64,000 bases of DNA from Candidatus Wildermuthbacteria bacterium (GCA_037445205.1 JBBIKX010000001.1:8767-72766); one strand, 5' to 3'; shown: positions 27,861 to 56,341, counted from the stretch's first letter. The notes: generated by a model not told the origin, from the sequence alone. Numbers and translations are program-made.

Positions 27861-29303
27861 CTATCTTAAAATCTCATTATTTGAATAAAACTTGTCTTTT
27901 TCCAAAACAAAAAGAGTTTTTTTCTCGCCAATCCATAAAATCTTTGCGTTGTTAAACTCTGATATTTGCCAGATATTGACCGGTTTTCTATCATCAATTT
28001 CTATTATAAAAATTCCGCTGCGCCCGGAAAAAATTAAATGATTCAAGCCCAGCCAAAAAATTTCATTCACTGGTTCCTTAAATTCAGCCAATTTGACGAT
28101 TTCCATTTCTTGGCGATGGGGTTGCTCATATTCTTTTTCTAAATAAAAAATTTCTATTTGATTGCCTTTCAAGATAGATATTTTTCTGTTTTCTTTATCC
28201 GCCAAAACCTTGTTTACATTTTCAGAGACTTTGTAAAAAATATGCGTTTTTGGATTTATATAGTAAAGATTCTCATCGCCCAGGACAAAAAACCGGGAAT
28301 TTGGGTAAGCAAAAATTTTATAACTTTTTTCATTCATTTCCAGGGGTTTCAAATTCAATATTTCCGAAACAATAATGATATGGTCTCTTATAAATGTTTT
28401 GTACAAAAAACCGCTGCTGCCCAGTAAAATCAAATCGCCGTTTAAAAAAGAAAAATCCATTATTTGGTCATCAAAAAAGGCTTCATTCATTAGCGATATT
28501 TGGTTAAGCTGTTCGTCAAGCGTCCAAAGGCGATCTTTTTTATTGTTTTTTACATCATCGCCGATAAAAACAATTTCGTTTTGATTTTGAGGATTAAATT
28601 TGGCTGATTTTAGGGAAAACTCAATTTCAATGGGAATTAATTTGTTTTGAGAGATATCTACTAAAAATATCCTTTTCTGTTTATCAAGGGCTGCCTCAAA
28701 AATAATTTTTTTTTCGTCCCCTGACCAGATGACTTCGTTTATGGTCAAAGATGTTTTTGGCTTTTTTATCTTGAAATGCGGGATTAGCTGGTCTTCTGAA
28801 AAAAGCTGGCTGATTTTCGAGTCAAAATGGCTCAATAGCAATATTCTCCTTTCTTCCTTTTCTGCTCCTTGGTCTGCGACAGAAAAACGCCCCGAGGGAG
28901 AGAAAAATATTTCTTTAATGTTTTCATAAGAAAAGGAAAAATTTATATTTTGAGGGATAAGAAGGATATTTTTCGCTTCAGTCACCATTGATTCTTCTAT
29001 GGTAAGAATTTTTTCCCATTTTTGATAATTATCCCTTTCTATCCTTATATGATAATCTCCGGGCAAAAGGTTATTCAAAAAAACCGAACTAAAAATTGGG
29101 TTTGTTTTTTTAATAAGGCGGTCGTTTATATAAATTTTGGCTGTTGATGGTTCGCTTTTAAGATAAAGTCCTCCCAAATGAACGATTTTATATGAAGCGA
29201 AATCAAAACGATATCCGTTTATATAAAAAAGAGTCAAGGGGGCGCAAGTTAAAAAAGCCAACGAAAGCGCTAAAAGCAGAATTTTTTTATGAAGCTTTTT
29301 CAT
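27861..29303 (-). CDS. Secreted or membrane-anchored PEGA-domain protein with a C-terminal beta-rich region
   Basis: 480 aa with signal/TM anchor. The PEGA-like segment is AKIYINDRLIKKTNPIFSSVFLNNLLPGDYHIRIERDNYQKWEKIL. Confidence 0.6.
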   Translation of the reverse strand: MKKLHKKILLLALSLAFLTCAPLTLFYINGYRFDFASYKIVHLGGLYLKSEPSTAKIYINDRLIKKTNPIFSSVFLNNLLPGDYHIRIERDNYQKWEKILTIEESMVTEAKNILLIPQNINFSFSYENIKEIFFSPSGRFSVADQGAEKEERRILLLSHFDSKISQLFSEDQLIPHFKIKKPKTSLTINEVIWSGDEKKIIFEAALDKQKRIFLVDISQNKLIPIEIEFSLKSAKFNPQNQNEIVFIGDDVKNNKKDRLWTLDEQLNQISLMNEAFFDDQIMDFSFLNGDLILLGSSGFLYKTFIRDHIIIVSEILNLKPLEMNEKSYKIFAYPNSRFFVLGDENLYYINPKTHIFYKVSENVNKVLADKENRKISILKGNQIEIFYLEKEYEQPHRQEMEIVKLAEFKEPVNEIFWLGLNHLIFSGRSGIFIIEIDDRKPVNIWQISEFNNAKILWIGEKKTLFVLEKDKFYSNNEILR

Positions 29304-30671: not shown

Positions 30672-31679
30672 ATGATTGTAAGAAAAATAGGAATAGATCT
30701 GGGGACCTGCAATTCATTGGTTTATATTCCCAAAAAAGGAGTGATGCTTAATGAGCCGACAGTTGTTGCCGTATCTATGGATGATAATAAAATTTTGGCG
30801 GTAGGCAGGGCGGCCAAAGAAATGACGGGCCGCACGCCAGATACTATAAGAGTTTATCGCCCTCTAAAAGATGGCGTAATCGCCGATTATACGGTCACTT
30901 TGGTGATGCTTAAATATTTTATTAACAGCACAAAACCATGGTATCAGGTTTTTAAGCCAGAACTTGTTATTTCTGTGCCTGCGGGTATTACCTCCACCGA
31001 AAAGAGAGCAGTGATAGAGGCTGCTATGGAAGCGGGCGCAAAGGCGGCTTATGTCGCAAAAGAACCCATTTTGGCAGCCATAGGGGCCGGTATCCCCATT
31101 AACAGCTGTTCGGGCCATCTGATCATTGATATTGGCGGAGGAACCACAGAGGTGGCTGTTATATCTCTTGGCGGGATAGTAACCGCGCATTCGGTGCGTA
31201 TGGCGGGAGATAAAATGAATGCGGCCATATCCGACTATATAAAAAAGAAATACAACTTGGCGATAGGCGAACAAACCGCAGAAGATATAAAAATAAAAAT
31301 CGGCACTGCTCTTTCTGAAAGAAAAGAAATGTTTATAGAGGCAAAAGGAAGAGATTTGATTTCCGGACTTCCAAGGGTGATAAAATTTTCATCAAATGAG
31401 GTATGCGAGGCCATTTCAAACGTTTTAAGCGATATAGTTCAGGCAGTAAAAATGGTTTTAAAAGAAACGCCCCCTGAGCTTGCCGCAGATATTATGGATA
31501 AGGGGATGGTGCTTTCCGGAGGCGGTGCGCTGCTCAGGAACATAGATCAATTAATTGCGAAAATGACAGGAGTGCCTTGTTTTGTGGCGGATGAACCGCT
31601 ATTTTGCGTTGTAAAAGGAACGGGAGTGGTTTTGGAAAATTTGGAGACATATAAAAAGAGCATTATGACAAAACATTAA
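30672..31679 (+). CDS. mreB: Rod shape-determining protein MreB
   Basis: 335 aa. Actin-fold motifs include IGIDLGTCNS and DIGGGTTEVAVISLGG. Confidence 0.92.
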   Translation: MIVRKIGIDLGTCNSLVYIPKKGVMLNEPTVVAVSMDDNKILAVGRAAKEMTGRTPDTIRVYRPLKDGVIADYTVTLVMLKYFINSTKPWYQVFKPELVISVPAGITSTEKRAVIEAAMEAGAKAAYVAKEPILAAIGAGIPINSCSGHLIIDIGGGTTEVAVISLGGIVTAHSVRMAGDKMNAAISDYIKKKYNLAIGEQTAEDIKIKIGTALSERKEMFIEAKGRDLISGLPRVIKFSSNEVCEAISNVLSDIVQAVKMVLKETPPELAADIMDKGMVLSGGGALLRNIDQLIAKMTGVPCFVADEPLFCVVKGTGVVLENLETYKKSIMTKH

Positions 31680-34286: not shown

Positions 34287-35540
34287 ATGAGGCAATCGCA
34301 ATTATTTTATAAAACAGAAAAAGTTTTGCCGGACAAAAAAGAGGCGATATCCCATGAGCTTTTAAAAAAAGCCGGCTTTATAAACCAATTGGCTTCAGGG
34401 CTTTATAGTTTATTGCCGCTGGGGTTTTTAGTCCATAAAAAAATTGAAAATATCATTCGCGAAGAAATGAAGAATATCGGCGCCCAAGAAGTATTTTTGC
34501 CCGCCCTGCAGCCAAAAGAAATTTGGGAAAAGACAAAAAGATGGAATACTATTGATCCTCCGCTCTTTAAGCTAAAAGACAGGCACCAAAAAGAATTTGC
34601 CCTTGGGTCTACGCATGAGGAAGTAATCAGCGATCTTGCGCGCCTTAAAATTAAATCTTACCGAGATTTGCCGGCGGCGCTTTTTCAGATTCAAACAAAA
34701 TTCAGAAACGAATTAAGATTTTCCGGGGGTCTTTTAAGGGCCAGAGAGTTTGTTATGAAAGATCTTTACAGCTTCCATCGAGATAAAGAAGATTTTGAGA
34801 AATATTATAAAAAGGCTATGGGCGCCTATCTTAAAATTTTTAAGCGATGCGGACTTAGGGCGGTTGTAACAGAAGCTTCGGGACAGGGATTTACAAAATC
34901 CGCTACTCACGAATTTCAGATTTTAACGCCGGCCGGCGAAGATAAAATAATTTTTTGCAAAAATTGTGCTTTTTCTCAAAATCAAGAAATCGCCCGGCAA
35001 AATGAAGGAGAAAAATGTTTAAATTGCAATAAGGGCGTTTTAGAGCTTAAGAGGGGAATAGAGGTGGGAAACATTTTTCCTTTGGAAGATAAGTATTCCA
35101 ATGATTTTGACCTTTATTTTGTTGATAAAGACAATAAAAAAAAGCCCGTTATTATGGGATGTTATGGAATCGGACTGGGAAGGTTGATGGCCGCCGCTGT
35201 TGAGATAAACTGCGATAAAAAAGGAATTGTCTGGCCAAAAGAGATAGCGCCCTACAGCGTGCATTTGCTTGCCATAGATTTAAAAGATAAAAAAGTTTTT
35301 CATCAGGCGGAAAGTTTTTATCAAAGTTTACAAGGCGCGGGTATGGGGGTATTATATGACGACAGACCGCAGACAAGCGCAGGAGAGAAATTTTTTGAAT
35401 CAGATTTGATAGGGATACCCAAAAGAATTGTTATCAGCAAAAAAACGCTGGGCGGGAATAAAATAGAATTAAAAGAGCGAAAGAGCGACAATTTGAAACT
35501 GATCAGCCGGAAACAGGCGTTAGGAGAATTAAAATTATGA
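34287..35540 (+). CDS. proS: Prolyl-tRNA synthetase (short form without the INS editing domain)
   Basis: 417 aa. Class II motifs and the ProRS signature SHELLKKAGFINQLASGLYSLLPLG. Confidence 0.85.
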   Translation: MRQSQLFYKTEKVLPDKKEAISHELLKKAGFINQLASGLYSLLPLGFLVHKKIENIIREEMKNIGAQEVFLPALQPKEIWEKTKRWNTIDPPLFKLKDRHQKEFALGSTHEEVISDLARLKIKSYRDLPAALFQIQTKFRNELRFSGGLLRAREFVMKDLYSFHRDKEDFEKYYKKAMGAYLKIFKRCGLRAVVTEASGQGFTKSATHEFQILTPAGEDKIIFCKNCAFSQNQEIARQNEGEKCLNCNKGVLELKRGIEVGNIFPLEDKYSNDFDLYFVDKDNKKKPVIMGCYGIGLGRLMAAAVEINCDKKGIVWPKEIAPYSVHLLAIDLKDKKVFHQAESFYQSLQGAGMGVLYDDRPQTSAGEKFFESDLIGIPKRIVISKKTLGGNKIELKERKSDNLKLISRKQALGELKL

Positions 35541-36604
35541 TAAAAAATTTATTTTCAAACTTTGGAAAAGATATTGCCATAGATCTGGGTACGGCCAATA
35601 CGCTGGTTTATGTGAAAGGAGAGGGGATAGTAATTCGGGAACCCTCGGTTGTGGCGCTCAACCAAAAAACTGGAAAAATTTTGGCAATTGGACAAGAGGC
35701 AAAGAAAATGATCGGCCGCACGCCTTCCCATATTTTGGCAATCAAACCGCTAAGGAATGGCGTCATATCCGATTTTGAAGTGGCAGAGCAGATGTTAAGG
35801 TATTTTATTCAGAAATCATATAAAAGGAATATTGTTTTTCCAAGGCCCCGAATTATTATTGGCATTCCATGCGGGCTGACAGACGTAGAAAGAAGGGCAG
35901 TCAGAGATGCCGCAAAAAATACCGGAGCAAAAAGCGTATTCTTGGTGGAACAGCCGATGGCCAGCGCAATCGGCGCAAGGCTGCCCGTTAACGACCCCGG
36001 AGGAAATTTTGTTGTTGACATTGGGGGAGGCACTACTGAAATAGCCGTTATATCTCTTGGCGGGATAGTTCTTTCCAAGAGCTTGAAAATCGCGGGAGAT
36101 AAATTAAACGACGATATCATCAATTATGTCCAAGAAGAATATCGTCTTTTGATAGGGGAAAGAACCGCAGAGCAGATAAAAATGCATCTTGGAAGCGCTT
36201 GCCATGTAAAAGAAAAAGAAGGCGCTCCCGTAAAAAAGGAATTGCCAATGAGGGGGCGAAATCTTATTACCGGCCTTCCCGAAGAAGTAATTATTACGCA
36301 AGATGACGTGCGCAGGTCTCTTGAGAAATCAATAAAAGAGGTTGTTATGGCAGTAAAGGATACAATCGAGGCAACCCCTCCCGAGCTTGTTTCCGATATT
36401 ATGACTAAAAATATTTATCTCTCAGGAGGAGGAGCGCTTTTGAAGGGAATAGATGTTTTGATATCAAAGGAAACGAGGATTCCGACAAAAATTGTGGAAG
36501 ATCCCTTAACTGCGGTTGTGAGAGGTGCGGGCATGGTTTTGGAAAATCTTGAGATATTCAAAGATGTTTTAACCCAGCCCCAAGAAGTTCAGATTCCGCA
36601 ATAA
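35537..36604 (+). CDS. mreB: Second MreB-family actin homolog
   Basis: 355 aa with IAIDLGTANTLVYV and DIGGGTTEIAVISLGG. Confidence 0.9.
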   Translation: MIKNLFSNFGKDIAIDLGTANTLVYVKGEGIVIREPSVVALNQKTGKILAIGQEAKKMIGRTPSHILAIKPLRNGVISDFEVAEQMLRYFIQKSYKRNIVFPRPRIIIGIPCGLTDVERRAVRDAAKNTGAKSVFLVEQPMASAIGARLPVNDPGGNFVVDIGGGTTEIAVISLGGIVLSKSLKIAGDKLNDDIINYVQEEYRLLIGERTAEQIKMHLGSACHVKEKEGAPVKKELPMRGRNLITGLPEEVIITQDDVRRSLEKSIKEVVMAVKDTIEATPPELVSDIMTKNIYLSGGGALLKGIDVLISKETRIPTKIVEDPLTAVVRGAGMVLENLEIFKDVLTQPQEVQIPQ

Positions 36605-36900: not shown

Positions 36901-38340
36901 ATGAATTTTTCTGACCTATCTATAAAGGAGATTCATAATGGGTTAAAAAGCAAAAAATTTTCCTGCCGGGAGTTAACCGATTTTTATTTGAGCAAAATTG
37001 AAGAGTGGAATCCGAAAATCAATGCCTATCTTTGGATTTTTTTTGATCAGGCGCGCTATCTTGCTCAAGAAATTGATGAATTAATAGCGCAGGAGAAAGA
37101 GATCCATCTTCTTTCGGGAATTCCCTGCGCGATCAAAGACAATATTGCAATAAGGGGCCAAAAAGCGAGCGCCGGCTCCAAAATACTCAAAAATTATATT
37201 GCACCCTATGATGCGTTCGTTATAGAAAAGTTGAAGTCAAAAAATAGCGTTATACTCGGGAAAACTAATTTAGATGAGTTTGCGGTGGGCTCTTCGGGAG
37301 AACATTCCGCATACGGGCCCACAAAAAATCCCTTAGACCATAAACTTGTTCCGGGCGGATCATCTTCGGGATCAGCGGCGGCAGTCAGCCAAAAAATGTG
37401 CGTTTTTTCATTGGGTTCGGACACGGGCGGATCCGTGAGGCAGCCCGCCTCATTTTGCGGAGTTGTGGGATTAAAACCAACCTATGGGGCGGTTTCTCGG
37501 CATGGATTGATAGCTATGGCTTCATCGCTGGATCAAATAGGCCCCATCGCAAAAACAGTTGAAGATGCAGAAATCGTTTTTGAGGCGATTAGAGGACAAG
37601 ACAAAATGGATTCAACCAGCTTTGAAAAAAAAGAAGAAGATTTTGAAAAGAAGCTTCAGGCAGAGAAATTTAAAATCGGAATCGTGAAAGAAGGGATGGG
37701 CGAGGGGATAGACAATGAAGTTCTTGCGTCTTTTAAAAAAACGATAGAAAATATAAGAAAAGAAGGAGTCAGCCTGGAAGAAATTAGCCTGCCCCACCTG
37801 CATTACGGACTCGCCTGTTATTATATTTTGATGACTGCGGAAGTTTCAAGCAATCTTGCAAGGTATGATGGAATAAAATATGGCCAATCAAAGAAAGACG
37901 CAAAAAATCTTTTAGATATTTATTTTGAAACAAGGAAAGAGTTTTTTGGACCGGAGGTGAAGCGAAGAATAATGCTTGGGACTTACTGTCTGTCATCGGG
38001 CTATTACGAGTCTTATTATTTAAAAGCCCAAAGAACAAGGACAAAAATAGTAGAGGATTTCAAAAGCGCATTCAAAAAAGTGGATTTGCTGTTAATGCCC
38101 ACCTCCTCCACTCTTCCATTCAGATTGGGCGAGAGGATAGACAATCCTTTGTCAATGTATCTTGCAGATTTGTTAACCGTTCCTGTTAATCTTTCAGGGC
38201 TTCCCGCCATTTCCATCCCTTTCAAGGACAAAAAGAAATTTCCGATAGGCATTCAGCTTATTGCTCCGGCCTTTGGAGAAAAAAAGATATTTGAATTTGG
38301 AAAATTTTTTGAGAAAATATGTCAATCCAAAACAACATAA
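36901..38340 (+). CDS. gatA: Glutamyl/aspartyl-tRNA amidotransferase subunit A
   Basis: 479 aa. Amidase signature with GGSSSGSAAAV. Confidence 0.93.
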   Translation: MNFSDLSIKEIHNGLKSKKFSCRELTDFYLSKIEEWNPKINAYLWIFFDQARYLAQEIDELIAQEKEIHLLSGIPCAIKDNIAIRGQKASAGSKILKNYIAPYDAFVIEKLKSKNSVILGKTNLDEFAVGSSGEHSAYGPTKNPLDHKLVPGGSSSGSAAAVSQKMCVFSLGSDTGGSVRQPASFCGVVGLKPTYGAVSRHGLIAMASSLDQIGPIAKTVEDAEIVFEAIRGQDKMDSTSFEKKEEDFEKKLQAEKFKIGIVKEGMGEGIDNEVLASFKKTIENIRKEGVSLEEISLPHLHYGLACYYILMTAEVSSNLARYDGIKYGQSKKDAKNLLDIYFETRKEFFGPEVKRRIMLGTYCLSSGYYESYYLKAQRTRTKIVEDFKSAFKKVDLLLMPTSSTLPFRLGERIDNPLSMYLADLLTVPVNLSGLPAISIPFKDKKKFPIGIQLIAPAFGEKKIFEFGKFFEKICQSKTT

Positions 38341-38945
38341 TCAATATTCCCAATTACGATTTTGAGGGGTTATTTTCTTATCTTTTAAGGATTGTTCAGG
38401 GATTTAAAATTCCCTTCATTGTTGTTTCTTTAATATTGCTTGCCGGAATTGTATATTTTATGGTTTTTACGGATTATCTTTATTACAAATACTTTGAGCA
38501 ATGGGAGGAATATACCAAATGGAAAGCGATGCATAAAATTCCCCGCAGAAAAAAAAGGAAAATCATCCAAAAGGAAAATCCGCTCTCCATGGCGCCGTCC
38601 CTGCCCGCAGAAGAGTCAATCATAAAAGAATCAAAACCGCCGGGGGAGTGGGAAAGGATTTTTGAAAAGCTTAAAAGCCAAAAAGGCATTGATTATAAAT
38701 TGGCGCTTGTTGACGCAGACAGATTGCTTGCCAAAAAATTAGAAGAAGCGGGAATCGCGGGAAGGAATTTAGATCAGCAAATAGAAAATGTTCCTCCGGA
38801 TTTTAAAATGGATTTGTCCCAGATTAAAAAGGCGCGAAATCTTTTAAAAGAGGTATTTTTGGAAGAAAAAAAGAAGACTGCGAAAAGCTCTGTTAAAGAG
38901 GCAATTGAGGTGTATAAAAATGCGTTTGACGCAGTAAAAATTTGA
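38319..38945 (+). CDS. Hypothetical membrane protein
   Basis: 208 aa with one TM and a charged C-terminal region. Confidence 0.5.
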   Translation: MSIQNNIINIPNYDFEGLFSYLLRIVQGFKIPFIVVSLILLAGIVYFMVFTDYLYYKYFEQWEEYTKWKAMHKIPRRKKRKIIQKENPLSMAPSLPAEESIIKESKPPGEWERIFEKLKSQKGIDYKLALVDADRLLAKKLEEAGIAGRNLDQQIENVPPDFKMDLSQIKKARNLLKEVFLEEKKKTAKSSVKEAIEVYKNAFDAVKI

Positions 38946-39305: not shown

Positions 39306-40373
39306 ATGAAAATTTCTGATTTAAATTTTAGTAATTTCAATAGACAAATTAAATTTTCAATGAAAGCAATACTAAGCGATTTTAAATATTTCTATTTATC
39401 GATTTTTTTCTTTGGAATTCTTTTGTTTTTCATTCCTGAAATTTGTAGCGCTAATTTCCTTATAGGAGGATTTTTTATGTATAGTTTCTCTTTGTTGGCG
39501 CCCGTTATTTTCACGGGCGTTTGGGCCATAGAAGCCTTAACTATCAAGAATAAATTAGGGGGGACGCCACAAAAAGCACTATTTACTGCTTTAGTGGTAA
39601 ATTTGGCCACCAGCCTATCGGGCTTTGTTTTGGTTAAAAAAAACTTCTTGGCGGAATACACCCTATATAACGAATCTCTTACATTAATGATTTTTTTCCT
39701 TCTATCTGTTTTTGTTGAAATGTTAATGTTGCATTTTTGCTATAGAGAAGAATCTTGGCATAAAGTAATTATTGCTAGCTTTTTAATGAATCTGAAATCT
39801 TACTTTTTTTTAGCGTTTTTCTTGATAGGAGATTTTACAATCATAGGCGGGGCTATTATTTTAGTTATTGTCGTCCCCTATTTTTTCACAAAAGCTTTTA
39901 GGATGTTAGCCCCGGACAGAGAGTTTTTAAAATTTTTTAAAATAAGATCAGGCATCTTAATTCATTTCCTTTCCATTGTTCTAATCGGTTTGGTGTTTAT
40001 AGGAACCATAAAGGCGATAGATAAAGCGTTTCTTAAGCAAAGAAGAGAGGTGATAAAAGAGCATGAGGTAATGTCTAACATGCTTCAGATAAGCTCCAAG
40101 GCAGAATTGATCTATGCATACAAAGGAAGTTATGAATCATTAAATTGCGACTATGACGAAGAAATAAAAAGTGCTTGCAAGAATATTGAAAAGAAGACAG
40201 GCGCCAGGCTCACTATTCATACATCTGAAAACAGATATTGCGCCTATATTAAATTAATTTATTCTGAAAAATGGTATTGCGCAGATAATATTTCTGGACT
40301 TATCCCTGGGAAAATTAATATTAATCCCTCTATTTTGGGGTATTGTGATGGTAAGACTTTTATTTGTCCATAA
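39306..40373 (+). CDS. Polytopic membrane protein with a Cys-rich C-terminal domain (cargo of the tRNA-Asp-flanked insert)
   Basis: 355 aa, about 7 TM segments. C-terminal NCDYDEE...CAYIKL...YCADN...YCDGKTFICP. Confidence 0.6.
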   Translation: MKISDLNFSNFNRQIKFSMKAILSDFKYFYLSIFFFGILLFFIPEICSANFLIGGFFMYSFSLLAPVIFTGVWAIEALTIKNKLGGTPQKALFTALVVNLATSLSGFVLVKKNFLAEYTLYNESLTLMIFFLLSVFVEMLMLHFCYREESWHKVIIASFLMNLKSYFFLAFFLIGDFTIIGGAIILVIVVPYFFTKAFRMLAPDREFLKFFKIRSGILIHFLSIVLIGLVFIGTIKAIDKAFLKQRREVIKEHEVMSNMLQISSKAELIYAYKGSYESLNCDYDEEIKSACKNIEKKTGARLTIHTSENRYCAYIKLIYSEKWYCADNISGLIPGKININPSILGYCDGKTFICP

Positions 40374-47561: not shown

Positions 47562-49058
47562 ATGAGCTATATTGTTAAAATAATATTTTTTTGGAAAAGA
47601 ATTTATTTGCTGATAATGATTATCTGTTTTTCTTTATTCGCAGAGTTTGCGTTGGCAGAAGAAATTAAACAAGAAATATATGTCCCCAAAATAGAAATAG
47701 GCGATGGAATTACTCATTTAGCCAGAAAAACAATAATTGAATTTATAAAAAGAGAGGGTATTGACCCCAGAATTACGGTTCCGCACTTGGTTTATATTGA
47801 GGATCGTCTTGCGATAGAAAAAGGAAAGAAAACTATTTATTTAAAAGATTTTTCGCCAATAAATTTTTCCAGTGAAGAAATATCTAGGGCGATAAATAAA
47901 GCGTTGCTGCTTAACGAAAAGCAGATTTTAAGCTTAGAGCACTACGCTCTGTCCGTAAGCGCATATTTTGACTTAATAGTTAATAATAAGTTGCGGTTTA
48001 ATATAAAAAAAATTTCCGATTATAATTTGCCCCAGATAACCGGATTAGGATATCGCTTTATTGTTTACAAAGACAATATTTTTTTATTAGACATAGAGAA
48101 AAAAATAATGATTTTAGATATAGCGAATTCTAAAACCCCGAAGTTAATTGCCGAATTTTCTCCACCCCCTGGGGCTCGATGTAATAATCTTGCCTCTCTA
48201 CAAGACAATTTGATCGCTCTTTTTTGCTGGAATTCTTTTTCCGAGAGAATAATCTATTTTCTCGAGGTAGACAATCCTTTTGATTTGAAAATTATTTCAG
48301 AGTATAAGTTCGGCAAGGGAAATCTTATGGGAAATGCCGCTATAAAAGATTCTTTGCTTTTTTTGAGCGATTATAATCTATTTGAGGCAATAGACGTAGG
48401 CGATATTAAAACACCAAAATTAATTTTTAAACATGAATTTGATGATAGCTTTGAGCCGGTGAATATAACAAAAAAAGATAATCTTTTAATAGTCGGCTAT
48501 GATAAAAACTCTCCCCAGATCTTATGGTTGTTTGATGCCAAAAATTTTGAAATAAAAGAATTAGAAATACAAAACGAGAAAGCGATAAAACATCGCTATT
48601 TTTGGAGAAGCAGGGAAGGAAAAAACTGGCTCTTGGGTTCGCCCAGTATTTATTATTATTTTCCTTCATTGCTATTTATCAACTCCAAGGATATTTCTTT
48701 GGGAAAAAATAGCGGAATCTTGAACGTTAAGCCCTTTGAATTTCAATGTCCTTTATTAGAAAATCCAATTTTTGACTATGATAGCAAAGATGATGTCGTA
48801 TATCTTTATGTTCGCAGCCGCTATTTGAGAGACCCGACAAACAATATAACAGAATGTTGTGATGAGAATCTTTATATTTTGGATTTTAATGCTATTGGAG
48901 AAGAGCCACTAAAAGAGATTATAAATATCGGAAAATCCCCAGTTCTATTTAAAAATATGAACCTACAAAAGAGTAGATTATTTACTGTAACCGACTCCTT
49001 AACGACTTCTTGGCAAAAACTGGAAATTTATCAATTAATAAAAACTATCCATCCTTGA
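47562..49058 (+). CDS. Secreted LVIVD-repeat beta-propeller-like protein
   Basis: 498 aa with a signal peptide and repeated ...ILDIANSKTPKLIAEF / IDVGDIKTPKLIFKHE LVIVD-type motifs. Confidence 0.55.
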   Translation: MSYIVKIIFFWKRIYLLIMIICFSLFAEFALAEEIKQEIYVPKIEIGDGITHLARKTIIEFIKREGIDPRITVPHLVYIEDRLAIEKGKKTIYLKDFSPINFSSEEISRAINKALLLNEKQILSLEHYALSVSAYFDLIVNNKLRFNIKKISDYNLPQITGLGYRFIVYKDNIFLLDIEKKIMILDIANSKTPKLIAEFSPPPGARCNNLASLQDNLIALFCWNSFSERIIYFLEVDNPFDLKIISEYKFGKGNLMGNAAIKDSLLFLSDYNLFEAIDVGDIKTPKLIFKHEFDDSFEPVNITKKDNLLIVGYDKNSPQILWLFDAKNFEIKELEIQNEKAIKHRYFWRSREGKNWLLGSPSIYYYFPSLLFINSKDISLGKNSGILNVKPFEFQCPLLENPIFDYDSKDDVVYLYVRSRYLRDPTNNITECCDENLYILDFNAIGEEPLKEIINIGKSPVLFKNMNLQKSRLFTVTDSLTTSWQKLEIYQLIKTIHP

Positions 49059-50006: not shown

Positions 50007-50429
50007 ATGAAAAAAATACAAACAAAAGTTAAACTCCATATCGCCGCCGCTCAGGCTAATCCCGCCCCTCCTATCGGTCCCGCCCTTGCGCAACACGGAA
50101 TAAACATCGCTGACTTTTGCCAGAAGTTTAATGCCGCAACTAAAAATCTGGCAGGTTATCAGATTCCTGTTGAAATATCAATATACGAGGACAGGACTTT
50201 TAATTTTAAAATAAAACAGCCCCTTGTCAGCGATCTTTTAAAAAAGGCAGCGGGCATTGAGAAAGGGTCGGGCGAGCCGAATAAAATTAAGGCTGGAATA
50301 ATCACCAAAGAGCAGTTAAAAGAGATTGCCCAGAAGAAATTAGACGATTTAAACACAAAAAACATTGATGCCGCAATGAAAATTATTGAAGGACAGGCAA
50401 GATCAATGGGAATTGAAATTAAAAATTAG
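50007..50429 (+). CDS. rplK: 50S ribosomal protein L11
   Basis: 140 aa with [22 protein letters not shown]. It is not followed by rplA. Confidence 0.95.
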
Positions 50430-50434
50430 TTTTT

Positions 50435-51265
50435 ATGACCCAGTTTGACGAGCAGTATAAACAAGCAATCTGGGAAGTAATGAACGGAGGTACGGAAATT
50501 TACAGCGCAAGACAGAAATGTCATACCAAAGCTTTTCCGGGCATAACCTTTAATTTAGACAAAGGATTTCCTCTGCTTACTTTGAGAAAAATTCCTGTTA
50601 AAATTTTTGTCGCTGAACAATTCTGGTTTTTGATGGGCGAAAAAGACCCCAAGGTTTTTTTAAAAAAATTTACTGCCATATGGGATGATTTTGCCGATCA
50701 AAATGGATTAGTTTTGGGCGCTTATGGCTATCGCTGGAGGAAGCATTTTGGGAAAGATCAAATAGCCAATTTGTTGAGCCTTCTTTCCCAGGATCCAAGT
50801 TCGCGTCACGGAGTTGTGGTGGCGTGGGATCCCTCAGACGACATCAGGACCCTTGATTCAAAAAAGAAAAACGTTCCCTGCCCCTATACTTTCACTGTTA
50901 ATATTATCGGCAATAAGCTTCATATTCATATTATTATAAGGTCAAACGATATGATTCTTGGCTGTCCTCACGATATTGCGGGATTTGCGCTTTTGCAAAG
51001 GATTTTGGCCGGAAAGCTGGGGGTAAAGACAGGAAAGCTTACTTGTTCCATCAGCAATGCCCACATTTACGATATTCATTACAATGCGGCATGGGAGATG
51101 CTTGAAAGAAAAAACAATCATCCCGAAATTATTTTGGACGCAGAAGAAAATTGGTTTGACAGGGCGGAGAAGGGAGATGAATCGCTTGCTCAAGAAATTA
51201 TAGATACCATTGCAAGACAATATAGCCCGATGAATCCCATTAAGGGCTTAAAAATTATTTTATAA
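50435..51265 (+). CDS. thyA: Thymidylate-synthase-family enzyme with Asn177(E. coli)->Asp and RSND motif (possible cytosine-nucleotide C5-modifying enzyme)
   Basis: 276 aa. TS fold motifs: FPLLTLRK, AEQFWFLMGE, catalytic VPCP, IIRSNDMILGCPHDIAGF, SNAHIYDIH. A gap-free 22-residue alignment from the catalytic PC puts D where all TS enzymes have N (LPFNIAS). Confidence 0.8.
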   Translation: MTQFDEQYKQAIWEVMNGGTEIYSARQKCHTKAFPGITFNLDKGFPLLTLRKIPVKIFVAEQFWFLMGEKDPKVFLKKFTAIWDDFADQNGLVLGAYGYRWRKHFGKDQIANLLSLLSQDPSSRHGVVVAWDPSDDIRTLDSKKKNVPCPYTFTVNIIGNKLHIHIIIRSNDMILGCPHDIAGFALLQRILAGKLGVKTGKLTCSISNAHIYDIHYNAAWEMLERKNNHPEIILDAEENWFDRAEKGDESLAQEIIDTIARQYSPMNPIKGLKIIL

Positions 51266-51270
51266 ATTAT

Positions 51271-51777
51271 ATGAAAATAATTTTAGTAATGGCAATCACG
51301 CTTGATGGGAAAATTGCCAAGACAAAAGACCATTTTCCAAACTGGACGTCAAAGGAGGATAAAAACTTCTTTGCCAAAATTTCAAAAAAGCACAAGGTCG
51401 TCTTAATGGGAAAGAACACTTTTGATACCTTCAAAAAACCGCTCAAAGACAGATTAAATGTGGTTTTTACAAATAAAAAAAATCTGGCGAAGATAAAAAA
51501 TGTAATGTGGGTTTCGGGCAAAATAAGTCCGATTTTAAAAAAGCTGGAAAAGAGGGGATATAAATCGGCGGTTCTTGGCGGAGGAGCAATGTTGAACGCA
51601 GAGTTCTTAAAGGAAAAATTGATAGATGAGGTTATAGTCACAATCAATCCCAAAATCTTTGGGCGAGGGATATCTTTGTTTGAAGGAGATTTTGATATTG
51701 ATTTAAAACTTTTAAAAGTGGAAAATATTAATAAAGATACGATAGCTCTTCGTTATAGGCCGGTGTTTTGTAATTAA
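51271..51777 (+). CDS. folA: Dihydrofolate reductase
   Basis: 168 aa starting MKIILVMAITLDGKIAK... with DHFR GG motifs. Confidence 0.88.
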   Translation: MKIILVMAITLDGKIAKTKDHFPNWTSKEDKNFFAKISKKHKVVLMGKNTFDTFKKPLKDRLNVVFTNKKNLAKIKNVMWVSGKISPILKKLEKRGYKSAVLGGGAMLNAEFLKEKLIDEVIVTINPKIFGRGISLFEGDFDIDLKLLKVENINKDTIALRYRPVFCN

Positions 51778-51786
51778 ATTAAAAAT

Positions 51787-52443
51787 ATGCCCCTATCAAA
51801 ACCTGAAATCATAAAATCCATCCAAGAAGAGAAAATTAAATTTGAACCGTCTCTTGATAAATTTCAGCTTCAGCCCCATTCCATTGATTTGCGGCTTGGT
51901 TGGAATTTTTATATACCAAAAAACTGGGCAATCACGGAAAAGGGAAGGGTTGGCGTAAGTATTGATTATTTGGACACGCAATCCCAAAAAGACAACTTTG
52001 ATTTAATCAAATTAAAACCCGGTCAGTATTTTGAAATTTTGCCAAAAGAATTCATTATTGCTTCGACAATGGAAAAGGTGGTTATAGAAGCCGATAAGCT
52101 AATGGCATTGTTGTATCCCAGAAGCTCTTTTACAAGAAAAGGGTTGTTCATTGCCAGCGGAATCGTTGATGTAAAATACAGCGGATATCTGGCTCTTTCA
52201 GTGATAAACAATACAGAAACCCAGATTATAAGGCTATATCCGGGCGAAAGAGTGTGCCAGCTGGTCTTTCATTTTTTAAGCTCTGCTTTGTCGCCAGAAG
52301 AGGCAATTAAGCACGGGATAAGCGATTCCAAATATTTAAAAGCGGCTCCTTATTCTCTTGAGGCAAAAAGCGACAATCAGGAAGAAATAGATCTAATCAG
52401 ATTTGGAAAGATTGGCGAATTGAAAGAAAAATTCAAATTATAA
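51787..52443 (+). CDS. dcd: dCTP deaminase / dUTPase-family protein
   Basis: 218 aa. HSIDLRLG...RSSFTRKGL...GYLALSVIN aligns with E. coli Dcd. Confidence 0.8.
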   Translation: MPLSKPEIIKSIQEEKIKFEPSLDKFQLQPHSIDLRLGWNFYIPKNWAITEKGRVGVSIDYLDTQSQKDNFDLIKLKPGQYFEILPKEFIIASTMEKVVIEADKLMALLYPRSSFTRKGLFIASGIVDVKYSGYLALSVINNTETQIIRLYPGERVCQLVFHFLSSALSPEEAIKHGISDSKYLKAAPYSLEAKSDNQEEIDLIRFGKIGELKEKFKL

Positions 52444-52449
52444 AAGCCG

Positions 52450-52908
52450 ATGGGAAAAGAAGGAATAAAATATCCCTATTTGCCGGAAGCAAGAGAAATA
52501 AAATTTGTTTCAGAAAAAAATATTTTTATCAGGGAGGCGAAGAAAATTTGCAAAAAGAAAGGATGCATTGCGCATCCAACAGGGGCGGTTTTGGTCAAAA
52601 AGAATAAAATCATAGGGAAGGGGACTAACGCCGCAAAAAAAATAAAAGATTGTCCAAGGGCTTTGAAAAAAAGCAAGACCGGCCAAGATTATCATTTATG
52701 CAAAAAAATTTGCCTGCAGGAAGGACACGCAGAAGCGATGGCGATTAAAAGCGCAAAAGAAAAAAAGGAGAAAATCAGAGGAGCAGATTTATATCTTTAT
52801 GGCCATTGGTGGTGCTGTAAAGATTGTTGGGATAAAATCATCAAAGAAGGGATAGGAGAGGTTTATTTAATTGAAAACGCTTTTGATAAATTTCATAAGC
52901 GAATATGA
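52450..52908 (+). CDS. dCMP deaminase (ComEB-type cytidylate deaminase family)
   Basis: 152 aa with HAE...C-x2-C zinc motifs (GHAEAMAI, WCCKDC). Confidence 0.8.
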   Translation: MGKEGIKYPYLPEAREIKFVSEKNIFIREAKKICKKKGCIAHPTGAVLVKKNKIIGKGTNAAKKIKDCPRALKKSKTGQDYHLCKKICLQEGHAEAMAIKSAKEKKEKIRGADLYLYGHWWCCKDCWDKIIKEGIGEVYLIENAFDKFHKRI

Positions 52909-53540
52909 AAAAAAATCCTTATCTTGGAAAATTCATAGTTTTTGAAGGGCTGGACGGGTCCGGACAAAGCACCCAAGCATCAAAACTGGTGGATTATTTC
53001 AATGAAAAAAACCAGATATTTAAATTTGGGCATACCGGAGCGCATCTTACCAAAGAGCCGACATCCGGAATTATTGGAGGATTAATCAGGGGCCAGCTAT
53101 CTTTTGACTGGAAATCTTCTCAAGAATGCCTCCAGCTTTTATTTGCGGCAGATCGGGCGTACCATCTAGAAAAGGAGATTTTGCCTCTTTTGGAAATGGG
53201 CGTAACGGTGGTTTGCGATCGTTATTTTTTTTCTTCTTGCGCCTTCGGGGCGCTGGAGGCCGATCAGGAATGGCTTTTAAAAATCAATGAAAAGTTTCTT
53301 TTGCCTGATTTGATATTCCTGCTTGCTGTTTCTCCCAAAATCTGCATTGAAAGAATAAAAAGAAATCGTTTTGAAATAAATCTTTTTGAAAACGAAGAAA
53401 TATTAAAAAATGTGTGGGAGAAATACTTGATATTGGCACATCAAAATAAAAACACGCATATTATAGACGGGGAACGGCCGATCAATGAGATTTTTGAGGA
53501 GATTAAAGAAATAACTGATAGGAAATTTAACCAACGATGA
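52905..53540 (+). CDS. tmk: Thymidylate (dTMP) kinase
   Basis: 211 aa with P-loop FEGLDGSGQSTQ and LID region. Confidence 0.9.
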   Translation: MKKNPYLGKFIVFEGLDGSGQSTQASKLVDYFNEKNQIFKFGHTGAHLTKEPTSGIIGGLIRGQLSFDWKSSQECLQLLFAADRAYHLEKEILPLLEMGVTVVCDRYFFSSCAFGALEADQEWLLKINEKFLLPDLIFLLAVSPKICIERIKRNRFEINLFENEEILKNVWEKYLILAHQNKNTHIIDGERPINEIFEEIKEITDRKFNQR

Positions 53541-55024: not shown

Positions 55025-55135
55025 TATATAATACTTAAAATCCAGAATAAGGAGGTGGTCGCCGGGATACAGTCCAAAGAGGGCGAGGGGCGTTTTCGGA
55101 AGCAAAACCGGATCTTTCTTGCGAAAGGAGCATCG

Positions 55136-55333
55136 ATGCCAGCAGTAAATCTTGTTAACGTGGCGAGGTCATTGCCGGACGAAGAGGCGGAGAGGCTTTT
55201 GCTCATCGAGCAAAGCAATCCTGATTGCCTCAGGGCGCTTTTTGCGGTCGTTCTGAGCGCCGGAACGCTGGAAAAAGCTGTTCCTCTGATCCAACGAGTT
55301 CTTGCTGGCGCACCCTTGTTTCCGGGCGGATGA
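55136..55333 (+). CDS. Small hypothetical protein (65 aa) in GC-rich cassette C; start uncertain
   Basis: Inside a GC-rich segment that begins with AAGGAGGTG (55049-55057) but has no start codon at the right spacing. An internal aaaggag-N5-ATG sits at 55136. The ORF ends at a TGA followed by a perfect terminator. Confidence 0.4.
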   Translation: MPAVNLVNVARSLPDEEAERLLLIEQSNPDCLRALFAVVLSAGTLEKAVPLIQRVLAGAPLFPGG

Positions 55334-56341
55334 AACTGGATGGGGCTCCCTTCGGGAGCCCCCTTGTTTTGTTAAAAAAGTATTTATTATTTTTCTGGCT
55401 TTTTTTTTATCCCCAACCCAATTTACTCTTTTGTCTTTTTTAAACCAGGTTATTTGTCTTTTGGCGTAACTTTCAATTGCTTTTTGGAGCATTCCGACCA
55501 TTTCATCATAGCCAATTTTTTTTTGAAGATAGCAAGCAATATATCTGTATTCCAATCCAAATTCTTCAAGCCGTTTCCAGGAAACGCCGTCTTTTCTTAG
55601 CGCTCTGACCTCTTTTATCATCCCCTGATTTAATCTTTTGTATAGCCGTTTTCTGATTAAATTTTTTAGCTCTTTTTTTTCTTTCTTGATGCCGATAATG
55701 AGCAAATCAAACAATTGGCTTTTTTTTATGACGGGTACCGGTTTTTTTGATTTCAAAACTATTTCAATTGCCCGGATTAATCTGCGGGGATTTTTTTTAT
55801 CAATAATTTTTGCCCGCCGCGGGTCCAGTTTTTTTAACATTTGATAAAGCTGGTTTGGCAATTTTTTTTCCAGTTTTTTCCTTAATTTCCAGTCCGGCGG
55901 AATTTTTGGGATGACGATTCCGTCAACGACTGATTGAATATAGAATCCGGTGCCGCCGCAAAGAATGGGCAGCTTATTTCTCTTATGGATTTCCCTTATT
56001 TTTTTTAATGCCATTTTTTGATACTGGGCGACCGTAAATTTCCTTTTTGGAGAAGCAACATCCAAAAGATGATGTTGGATGCCTCTATAAAGATATGACT
56101 GTTTTGAAATTTGAGATTTAGGACTTGGAGTTTGTTTAGAAATTAGAAATTTGGAATTAGAAATTTTATCTCGTGGAACCTTCCCGGTTCCGATATCCAT
56201 TTTGCGATAAACCTGACGGGAATCGGCCGAAATCACCTCTCCGTTAAAATTTTTTGCCAGTGCTACCGCCAAATCGCTTTTTCCCGAAGCAGTGGGTCCA
56301 AGAATAACTAACAATATTTTTCGGTCCGTTTTTTTTGACAT
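55169..56341 (-). CDS. miaA: tRNA dimethylallyltransferase; about the last 70 codons read antisense through GC-rich cassette C (an insert-derived C-terminal extension or lost stop)
   Basis: P-loop ILGPTASGKS and MiaA core. The lysine-rich host-like tail ...NWVGDKKKARKIINTFLTKQ is followed by the GC-rich-encoded GGSRREPHPVSS... Confidence 0.8.
   Translation of the reverse strand: MSKKTDRKILLVILGPTASGKSDLAVALAKNFNGEVISADSRQVYRKMDIGTGKVPRDKISNSKFLISKQTPSPKSQISKQSYLYRGIQHHLLDVASPKRKFTVAQYQKMALKKIREIHKRNKLPILCGGTGFYIQSVVDGIVIPKIPPDWKLRKKLEKKLPNQLYQMLKKLDPRRAKIIDKKNPRRLIRAIEIVLKSKKPVPVIKKSQLFDLLIIGIKKEKKELKNLIRKRLYKRLNQGMIKEVRALRKDGVSWKRLEEFGLEYRYIACYLQKKIGYDEMVGMLQKAIESYAKRQITWFKKDKRVNWVGDKKKARKIINTFLTKQGGSRREPHPVSSARKQGCASKNSLDQRNSFFQRSGAQNDRKKRPEAIRIALLDEQKPLRLFVRQ
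55342..55374 (+). terminator. Rho-independent terminator with UUCG tetraloop (ggggctccc-ttcg-gggagcccc-cttgttttgtt)
   Basis: A 9-bp perfect stem with a T-rich tail. It lies antisense inside the extended miaA reading frame. Confidence 0.75.

Follow-up and report, generated by a model that had tools for sequence, protein, structure and literature searches.

Thymidylate (deoxythymidine monophosphate, dTMP) synthesis is held to be universal in its logic, deoxyuridine monophosphate (dUMP) being methylated by ThyA or ThyX. The other order, in which deoxycytidine monophosphate (dCMP) is methylated first and deaminated after, has been reported, in the literature that we searched, only for 5-methylcytosine (5mC) phages, and we found no cellular dCMP-methylase route to dTMP in that literature. 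Can a cell make its thymidylate in the phage order? The question is raised by an operon at positions 50435-53540 (plus strand) of a 64,000-nt stretch, hereafter the window, from Candidatus Wildermuthbacteria bacterium (GCA_037445205.1 JBBIKX010000001.1:8767-72766). The operon encodes a ThyA-like protein, a protein resembling dihydrofolate reductase (DHFR), a Dcd-like protein, a deaminase of the cytidine deaminase (CDA) fold and Tmk, and is flanked by rplK and gatB. With a rough probability of 55%, we propose that it is a housekeeping operon for dTMP synthesis through cytosine nucleotides, a cellular version of the phage route.

The specificity position of ThyD

The ThyA-like protein, which we call ThyD (50435-51265, plus strand; 276 aa), has an Asp-type thymidylate synthase (TS) fold (PF00303, 169.9 bits; cut-off 24.3). 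In canonical ThyA, Asn177 pairs with O4 and N3-H of uracil. The counterpart of this residue in ThyD was located by three alignments: phmmer against PDB chains, MAFFT with E. coli ThyA and T4 gp42, and MAFFT of 158 sequences. All three place RSND-MILGCPHD opposite RSCD-VFLGLPFN and PCPYTF...IIRSNDMILGCPHDIAGF of ThyD opposite PCHAFF...YQRSCDVFLGLPFNIASY of E. coli ThyA, gap-free from the catalytic Cys to R166. Because the alignment is gap-free in each case, Asp180 of ThyD (codon 50972-50974) corresponds to E. coli Asn177. The first-pass annotation of this DNA had deduced the same Asn-to-Asp change and the RSND motif from a gap-free alignment starting at the Cys, and had named an Asn put there by alignment software as a refutation; the three alignments, including that with T4 gp42, all put an Asp there. 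The other deviations that it had listed are real, namely Arg127 to His125, His147 to Pro150 and Trp83 to Phe86 (E. coli to ThyD), to which Cys168 to Asn171 can be added. Cys149-Pro150 lies at 50879-50884, RSND (residues 169-172) at 50939-50950, His179-Asp180 at 50969-50974, and the TS-like C-terminus IKGLKIIL, whose E. coli counterpart is IKAPVAI, at 51239-51262.

ThyD retains R26, E61, Y97, R124, C149, R169, S170, D172, H210 and Y212, which correspond by MAFFT to R21, E58, Y94, R126, C146, R166, S167, D169, H207 and Y209 of E. coli. Its AlphaFold2 (AF2) model, built on 30 relatives, has a predicted local distance difference test score (pLDDT) of 91.3 and matches solved ThyA structures (M. tuberculosis and E. 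coli) along nearly its full length, with Foldseek template modelling (TM) scores of 0.77-0.80. ThyD thus resembles canonical ThyA in fold (TM about 0.8), length, catalytic Cys, phosphate-binding arginines, C-terminal tail and DHFR partner, but it falls outside the Asn-type group in both similarity ranking and a neighbour-joining (NJ) tree, described below. Experiments have established position 177 as the switch of pyrimidine specificity: Asn-to-Asp mutagenesis turns TS into a dCMP methylase. The cytosine-modifying phage TS homologs are best told apart by two positions, 177 and 147 (PMC8670742). ThyD departs from canonical TS at both.

The Asp is shared by all close relatives of ThyD. An exhaustive phmmer search with ThyD covered 1.84 billion representative proteins, and 80 related genomic loci, with roughly 15-64 kb of neighbourhood visible, were taken from 455 matches in a collection of species-representative genomes. 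Asp occupies the 177 position in 120/120 of the closest database homologs and in 81/81 genomic copies (the window plus the 80 loci). The top 77 phmmer matches are all of the Asp type, the first Asn-type sequence ranking 78th, and the 141 scorable matches comprise 120 Asp and 21 Asn sequences. Other positions change together with the Asp: residue 147 is not His in 117 of the 120 Asp-type sequences (it is mostly Pro) and residue 83 is Phe in 112, whereas the Asn-type sequences have His147 and Arg127 in 21/21 and Trp83 in 19/21. In the NJ tree, a rough one without support values, 113 of 119 Asp-type sequences form one clade with zero Asn-type sequences inside; this Asp-only clade holds ThyD together with the PaMx74-type phage references (the tree does not include the Xp12 enzyme or five assayed metagenomic homologs). 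Because of this invariance, covariation and common clade, ThyD is a member of a large and coherent cytosine-type branch rather than the bearer of a stray substitution.

Some Asp-type sequences depart at another catalytic position. Tyr94 of TS is implicated in C5 proton abstraction, and the Asp-type homologs P0252, P0253, P0312, P0313 and P0330 have Thr or Ser in its place; their chemistry may differ.

Phage dCMP methylases and T4 gp42

What does the cytosine-type branch do in phages? According to a 2024 preprint (bioRxiv 10.1101/2024.12.05.627091), 5mC takes the place of all C in the phages Xp12 and PaMx74, 5-methyl-dCMP is formed in vivo by the Xp12 enzyme and by five Asp-type homologs from metagenomes, and phage deaminases encoded in cis convert 5-methyl-deoxycytidine nucleotides to thymidine nucleotides, bypassing the dUMP-dependent TS. 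The text of the phage papers gives no rule that separates makers of 5-methyl-deoxycytidine from makers of 5-hydroxymethyl-deoxycytidine, or 5mC-selective from ordinary deaminases. Five of the best among 3784 matching phage records were inspected (H1, H4, H7, H9 and PaMx74), the phages infecting Janthinobacterium, Achromobacter, Xanthomonas, Ruegeria and Pseudomonas. NVPCP and RSSD..GLPYD are present in all five enzymes, and all five cassettes have a PRA-PH (MazG-like) pyrophosphatase directly upstream of the Asp-type ThyA, plus a deaminase of the dCMP family. Three of these cassettes have an annotated DHFR gene; in that of the Ruegeria phage, the ORF (open reading frame) downstream has no Pfam match.

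The Wildermuthbacteria operon resembles the Xp12/PaMx74 module in several respects: ThyD has Asp177, NVPCP (Pro147), Phe83 and a TS-type tail, belongs to the same Asp-only clade, and is accompanied by a CDA-fold deaminase, a DHFR and a gene predicted, by analogy, to be of NTP-pyrophosphatase type. The two also differ. The ThyD operon is cellular and housekeeping in its setting and has tmk attached; ThyD reads RSND and PHD where the phage enzymes read RSSD and PYD; and the pyrophosphatase partner has a Dcd/dUTPase fold in the operon but a MazG/PRA-PH fold in the cassettes. The deaminase belongs to a clade of its own, marked by GHWWxCxxCW and unlike that of the phages, of which the assayed enzyme acts on a triphosphate (5-methyl-dCTP, 5mdCTP). 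Finally, Xp12 and PaMx74 incorporate 5mC into their own DNA.

The best-known Asp-bearing relative of TS fits less well. Like the dCMP hydroxymethylase gp42 of T4, ThyD has an Asp at the specificity position (Asp179 in gp42) and RSND, but the two are only 20% identical, at an NJ distance of 2.29; gp42 lacks the C-terminal tail, has no need of a DHFR, and carries Thr at 147, Val at 83 and Arg at 127. Since the TS-like tail is conserved, a DHFR gene is adjacent and gp42 is distant, ThyD would be a methylase rather than a hydroxymethylase, and the hydroxymethylase reading was set aside as unlikely on these same grounds. The adjacent folA had been taken earlier as an argument for a methylation that produces dihydrofolate (DHF), and this argument has become part of the reading that we favour.

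If the enzyme is of the phage type, its product could in principle end up in DNA, with 5mC (or 5-hydroxymethylcytosine) replacing much or all of the C as in Xp12 and T4, and with the Dcd-like protein excluding dCTP. The type of enzyme and the pairing with a pyrophosphatase are indeed those of phages that fully replace C. The genomic setting is different. The rest of the window carries ribosomal-protein operons, secE-nusG-rplK, aminoacyl-tRNA synthetase genes, gyrB, two mreB, gatA/gatB, miaA/miaB and three tRNAs, and the closest relatives of its proteins are found in metagenome-assembled genomes (MAGs) of Patescibacteria, the candidate phyla radiation (CPR). The window is part of the cellular chromosome of a small-genome bacterium, and the operon is housekeeping in its setting; a prophage or viral origin was ruled out by this context of ribosomal-protein, aminoacyl-tRNA synthetase, gyrB and mreB genes. 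The ThyD family as a whole hardly occurs on viral contigs: 3 loci in the viral collection stand against 455 genomic relatives. The kinase next door is a standard dTMP kinase and not a broad dNMP kinase, and the co-transcribed deaminase would destroy a modified nucleotide; for the hydroxymethylation variant, the conserved C-terminal tail and the DHFR partner are additional obstacles. Because the deaminase is co-transcribed and the dTMP kinase ordinary, dTMP rather than modified DNA would be the end product, and we consider hypermodification very improbable. The first-pass annotation had left two readings side by side; that of dCMP to 5-methyl-dCMP to dTMP is favoured by the clade, the TS tail, the DHFR and the linkage to deaminase and tmk, and hypermodification gained no positive support.

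The three CPR-type ThyD genes in the viral collection (L092, L093 and L094 of IMG/VR; 47-53% identity) have a canonical Dut alongside; a deaminase is present in two of the three and the Dcd-like gene in none.

Partner genes and the predicted route

The third protein of the operon, DcdL (51787-52443, plus strand; 218 aa), is a Dcd/dUTPase-fold protein that scores above the dCTP deaminase profile (TIGR02274, 102 bits; cut-off 92.8) and matches PF22769 with 101.9 bits. It had been called dcd-family at first reading; the fold family stands, while dCTP deaminase activity does not, the catalytic Glu being absent from all 196 family members. Ser138 of DcdL (52198-52200) lies opposite this Glu (E138 of E. 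coli Dcd, E129 of the M. tuberculosis enzyme; phmmer against PDB and MAFFT), and across the family the position is Pro in 186, Ser in 9, Ala in 1 and Glu in 0. Elsewhere the family is strongly conserved: Ser113, Arg117, Asp128, Tyr131 and Glu154-Arg155 are near-invariant, and Gln158 is found in 170/196. DcdL retains RSS..R, G.VD..Y.G and PGERVCQ (52240-52260), and its C-terminus, of the Dcd type, is extended by an extra helical tail. Of the five dUTPase motifs, it has equivalents of motif 3 (VD..Y.G) and motif 4 (PGERVCQ) but no C-terminal motif 5 (RGxxGFGSTG), and TIGR00576 gives 31 bits, below its cut-off of 102.

The structures nearest to the AF2 model of DcdL (pLDDT 86.8) are bifunctional dCTP deaminase-dUTPases, those of M. 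tuberculosis, B. halodurans and M. jannaschii, with a root-mean-square deviation of 1.6-2.1 Å over about 171 residues. DcdL shares with them the Ser/Arg pair, the Asp-x-x-aromatic motif and the Dcd-type C-terminal lid. It differs in the change of Glu to Pro or Ser, in a loop before the Asp that is two residues shorter, in a conserved C-terminal helical extension (EEIDLI..GK..LK) and in its constant linkage to an Asp-type TS. Pro or Ser takes the place of the catalytic Glu, so deamination is not expected of DcdL, which is most simply explained as a non-deaminating member of the fold, predicted to be a dNTP pyrophosphatase and most likely to convert dCTP to dCMP. A canonical, full-length Dut is encoded within 7 kb of ThyD in 21/80 loci besides DcdL, and no neighbour of ThyD is more constant than DcdL (77/80); together these findings suggest that DcdL is not simply the dUTPase of the cell. 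No PRA-PH gene was found in the cellular ThyD loci, and DcdL would, by analogy, hold the role and position that the PRA-PH pyrophosphatase has in the five phage cassettes.

Two other ideas about DcdL were dropped. T4 gp56 shows no similarity to DcdL by BLASTP and is at most a functional analogue, not a homolog. We also gave up reading the base specificity of DcdL (dCTP or dUTP) from its sequence or AF2 model; the pockets of the Dcd family bind dCTP, dUTP and dTTP through main-chain contacts. Dcd2 of Dictyostelium, whose nearest relatives are Dcd proteins of CPR and Chloroflexi, complements an E. coli dcd deletion (PMC10733785).

The fourth protein is a zinc-dependent deaminase of the CDA fold (dCMP_cyt_deam; 52450-52908, plus strand; 152 aa; PF00383, 50.7 bits, cut-off 25). 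Its motifs are YPYLP, HAE at residues 93-95 (52726-52734) and GHWWCCKDCW at 118-127 (52801-52830), with the CxxC formed by C123 and C126. The clade to which it belongs was found among Patescibacteria-type sequences only and bears the signature YPYLP ... H(A/S)E ... GHWWxCxxCW instead of PCxxC. It stays far from the characterised dCMP deaminases ComEB, DCTD and T4 cd (TIGR02571, 29 bits; cut-off 219). Its best PDB match, a weak one (E = 2e-4), is a dCMP deaminase. By a weak margin it resembles the deaminase domain fused to an Asp-type TS in P0266 (E = 4.6e-6) and the PaMx74 deaminase (E = 3.5e-4) more than the T4 dCMP deaminase (E = 0.08). We infer that it is a 5-methyl-dCMP (or dCMP) deaminase.

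In 12 loci that lack the zinc deaminase, seven from Chloroflexi and five from CPR, we found a 342-aa TS paralog, TS2 (for example L081:8030-9058; the other loci are L056, L057, L035, L037, L047, L060, L062, L068, L070, L073 and L075). TS2 has an invariant Tyr (PPYQ.FQ) where the catalytic Cys would be, and it retains SRR, RS.D and the Asp at the Asn177 equivalent. Of the 80 loci, 64 have the deaminase only, 12 have TS2 only, none has both and four have neither (Fisher p = 3e-11, kinship ignored); three of these four are on contigs that are short or that end nearby, and the fourth also lacks DcdL. The mutual exclusion of deaminase and TS2 suggests that the deaminase step belongs integrally to the module and can be replaced. 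TS2 may replace the deamination step non-orthologously, or it may serve as a partner subunit of ThyD.

The two remaining partners are more ordinary. The DHFR-like protein (51271-51777, plus strand; 168 aa) is a RibD_C/DHFR_1 protein above the cut-offs of both PF01872 (87.5 bits) and PF00186 (53 bits), is assigned to DHFR by PHROG, and probably recycles the DHF made by reductive methylation. The folA genes of three CPR MAGs, which may or may not be of the same family as the DHFR-like protein, can stand in for a deleted folA in E. coli (PMC11974145). Tmk, the dTMP kinase (52905-53540, plus strand; 211 aa), scores 151.6 bits with the equivalog TIGR00041 (cut-off 83.25) and 151.7 bits with PF02223, and has the P-loop FEGLDGSGQS. 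Across the 80 loci, the deaminase is a neighbour of ThyD in 64 and the DHFR-like gene in 60, and in 34 tmk is found no more than 7 kb away from ThyD. No ThyX was found in the window or the 80 neighbourhoods with an approximate T. maritima ThyX sequence as query, and no second ThyA-like gene was found in the same set save the Cys-less TS2.

Fused proteins among the representatives join the same functions in single chains. Asp-type TS is fused to a dCMP-family deaminase in P0266 and to a PRA-PH pyrophosphatase in P0327, and these two fusions support a functional coupling of the three steps. Further fusions are with an HNH endonuclease (P0267) and with a LOG/'lysine decarboxylase'-like domain (P0353).

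Taking the genes together, the following order of reactions can be proposed, with every substrate predicted from the residues, fold, invariance, clade, loss of the Dcd Glu and gene linkage observed. DcdL would hydrolyse dCTP to dCMP and pyrophosphate. ThyD would methylate dCMP at C5 with methylene-tetrahydrofolate, giving 5-methyl-dCMP and DHF, as suggested by Asp180, its covarying residues and the clade shared with the PaMx74-type phage enzymes. The DHFR-like protein, to judge from its family, would regenerate tetrahydrofolate, the zinc deaminase would turn 5-methyl-dCMP into dTMP, and Tmk, whose family assignment lies above the curated cut-off, would phosphorylate dTMP to dTDP.

A number of observations weigh against this proposal. 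One thymidylate synthase equivalog, TIGR03284, is passed by ThyD (122.3 bits; cut-off 108.35). His179, which stands beside Asp180 and is confined to the ThyD family, could modulate the protonation of this Asp, and the identity between ThyD and the PaMx74 enzyme is 34%. The Glu-less archaeal Dcd-like protein of T. pacificus (PDB 8y1w), which has the same loop length as DcdL, is a dUTPase, and for this reason the substrate of DcdL stays a prediction; the canonical Dut near ThyD in 21/80 loci can also be read as a supply of dUMP for ThyD. The linkage counts treat each of the 80 loci equally and ignore kinship. Every partner gene fits the classical order, dCTP to dCMP to dUMP to dTMP, equally well. 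The two routes differ only in whether methylation or deamination comes first, and nothing but the base specificity of ThyD decides this.

An ordinary dUMP pathway could be built on the same genes, with ThyD as a TS that tolerates its Asp, for instance as a protonated Asp buffered by His179, with dUMP supplied by a dCMP deaminase plus hydrolysis of dUTP by DcdL and/or Dut, and with DHFR and Tmk in their customary roles. The gene set (TS, DHFR, dUTPase-fold protein, dCMP deaminase and Tmk) is exactly the classical one, Dut is often adjacent, and archaeal Glu-less Dcd-like proteins are dUTPases. ThyD itself has the fold and tail of a full TS, retains the other catalytic residues and passes TIGR03284, yet it falls far below the cut-offs of the five other ThyA equivalog models out of six, of which NF002497 gives 144 of 327 bits, NF002496 130 of 325, NF002495 123 of 327 and NF002499 117 of 405. 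A tolerated Asp is also difficult to reconcile with the literature cited second-hand in PMC8670742, according to which Asn to Asp alone moves the preference of the E. coli and L. casei enzymes from dUMP to dCMP, or with the cytosine-type Pro147, Phe83 and His/Gln127 that accompany the Asp in a clade of Asp-type sequences shared with PaMx74/Xp12-type enzymes. We regard the ordinary pathway as unlikely, though as the main rival it deserves to be taken seriously.

The presence of both a dUMP source (Dut, 21/80 loci) and a possible dCMP source (DcdL) near ThyD would also suit an enzyme that methylates dCMP and dUMP alike, with the deaminase channelling the 5-methyl-dCMP fraction to dTMP. Asn-to-Asp mutants of TS lose most of their dUMP activity, which counts against such dual specificity. 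Dual specificity would let a scavenging cell use whichever pyrimidine deoxynucleotide it obtained, and CPR bacteria are described as host-dependent with reduced genomes (PMC11665869). On balance we think it quite improbable.

Distribution, gene order and other features of the window

How far might the proposed methylation of dCMP extend? Within CPR, the module was seen in Falkow-, Kuenen-, Moran-, Magasanik-, Uhr-, Jackson-, Harrison-, Portnoy-, Doudna-, Davies-, Woese-, Shapiro- and Taylorbacteria, and it is also present in Chloroflexi MAGs (Anaerolineae and Ktedonobacterales). DcdL was found in Dojkabacteria too, and relatives of DcdL occur in Bipolaricaulota and WS5. It is possible, rather than probable, that Patescibacteria and part of the Chloroflexi share a uracil-free, vertically inherited and widespread third cellular route to dTMP, in which TS2 deaminates where the zinc deaminase is lacking.

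If dTMP is indeed made through 5-methyl-dCMP in these cells, the 'thymidylate synthase' labels in thousands of genomes misname the reaction and the 'dCTP deaminase' labels misname the activity, and the route covers a radiation with a large share of bacterial diversity. Uracil control of the dUTPase/Ung type would need rethinking in CPR-type organisms, and there would be a plausible cellular source, or sink, for the phage 5mC systems. The new enzymes would be a dCMP methylase of cellular origin, a dCTPase with the Dcd fold and a distinct clade of 5mC-nucleotide deaminases; related phage deaminases already serve methylome sequencing.

Chloroflexi loci have extra genes between a class II ribonucleotide reductase gene and ThyD (L081:6001-6579 and L081:6576-7004). 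They comprise another Glu-less gene of the Dcd/dUTPase fold (192 aa), in which Ile occupies the Glu position, a short-chain dehydrogenase/reductase gene, which is a possible alternative pterin/folate reductase, and a nucleoside 2-deoxyribosyltransferase-like (NDT-like) gene (142 aa). An NDT-like gene is also found 3' of the deaminase in about ten CPR loci (L010, L011, L017, L018, L024, L026, L043, L051, L054 and L058).

In the window, rplK (50007-50429) lies directly upstream of the ThyD gene and gatB starts at 53537, overlapping the tmk stop by 4 nt. From rplK through gatB the intergenic gaps are 5, 5, 9, 6, -4 and -4 nt, the start of tmk likewise overlapping the stop of the deaminase gene by 4 nt. 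The five genes had been described at the outset as contiguous right after rplK, and both their order and their coordinates hold. The thymidylate operon, after a gap of 5 nt, stands in the place of the usual downstream neighbour of rplK, rplA. A nusG-rplK pair is also present within 7 kb of ThyD in 36 of the 80 related loci.

Away from the operon, the GC content rises from about 35% in the flanks to 49-54% in an island at 55050-55400 of the window, which separates gatB from miaA. At the end of the island stands a strong GGGGCUCCC-UUCG-GGGAGCCCC hairpin with a U-run after it, and the miaA ORF call crosses the island with an odd Arg-rich tail. An Rfam search of the island gave only a sub-threshold match to the RNase P clan (10.8 bits), and the fold z-score was -1.95; the island may be an unrecognised structured RNA. 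The two MreB paralogs of the window are both full-length (30672-31679 and 35537-36604). Sizeable ORFs without a Pfam match lie at 27861-29303 (minus strand), 38319-38945 and 39306-40373, and a further sizeable uncharacterised ORF lies at 47562-49058.

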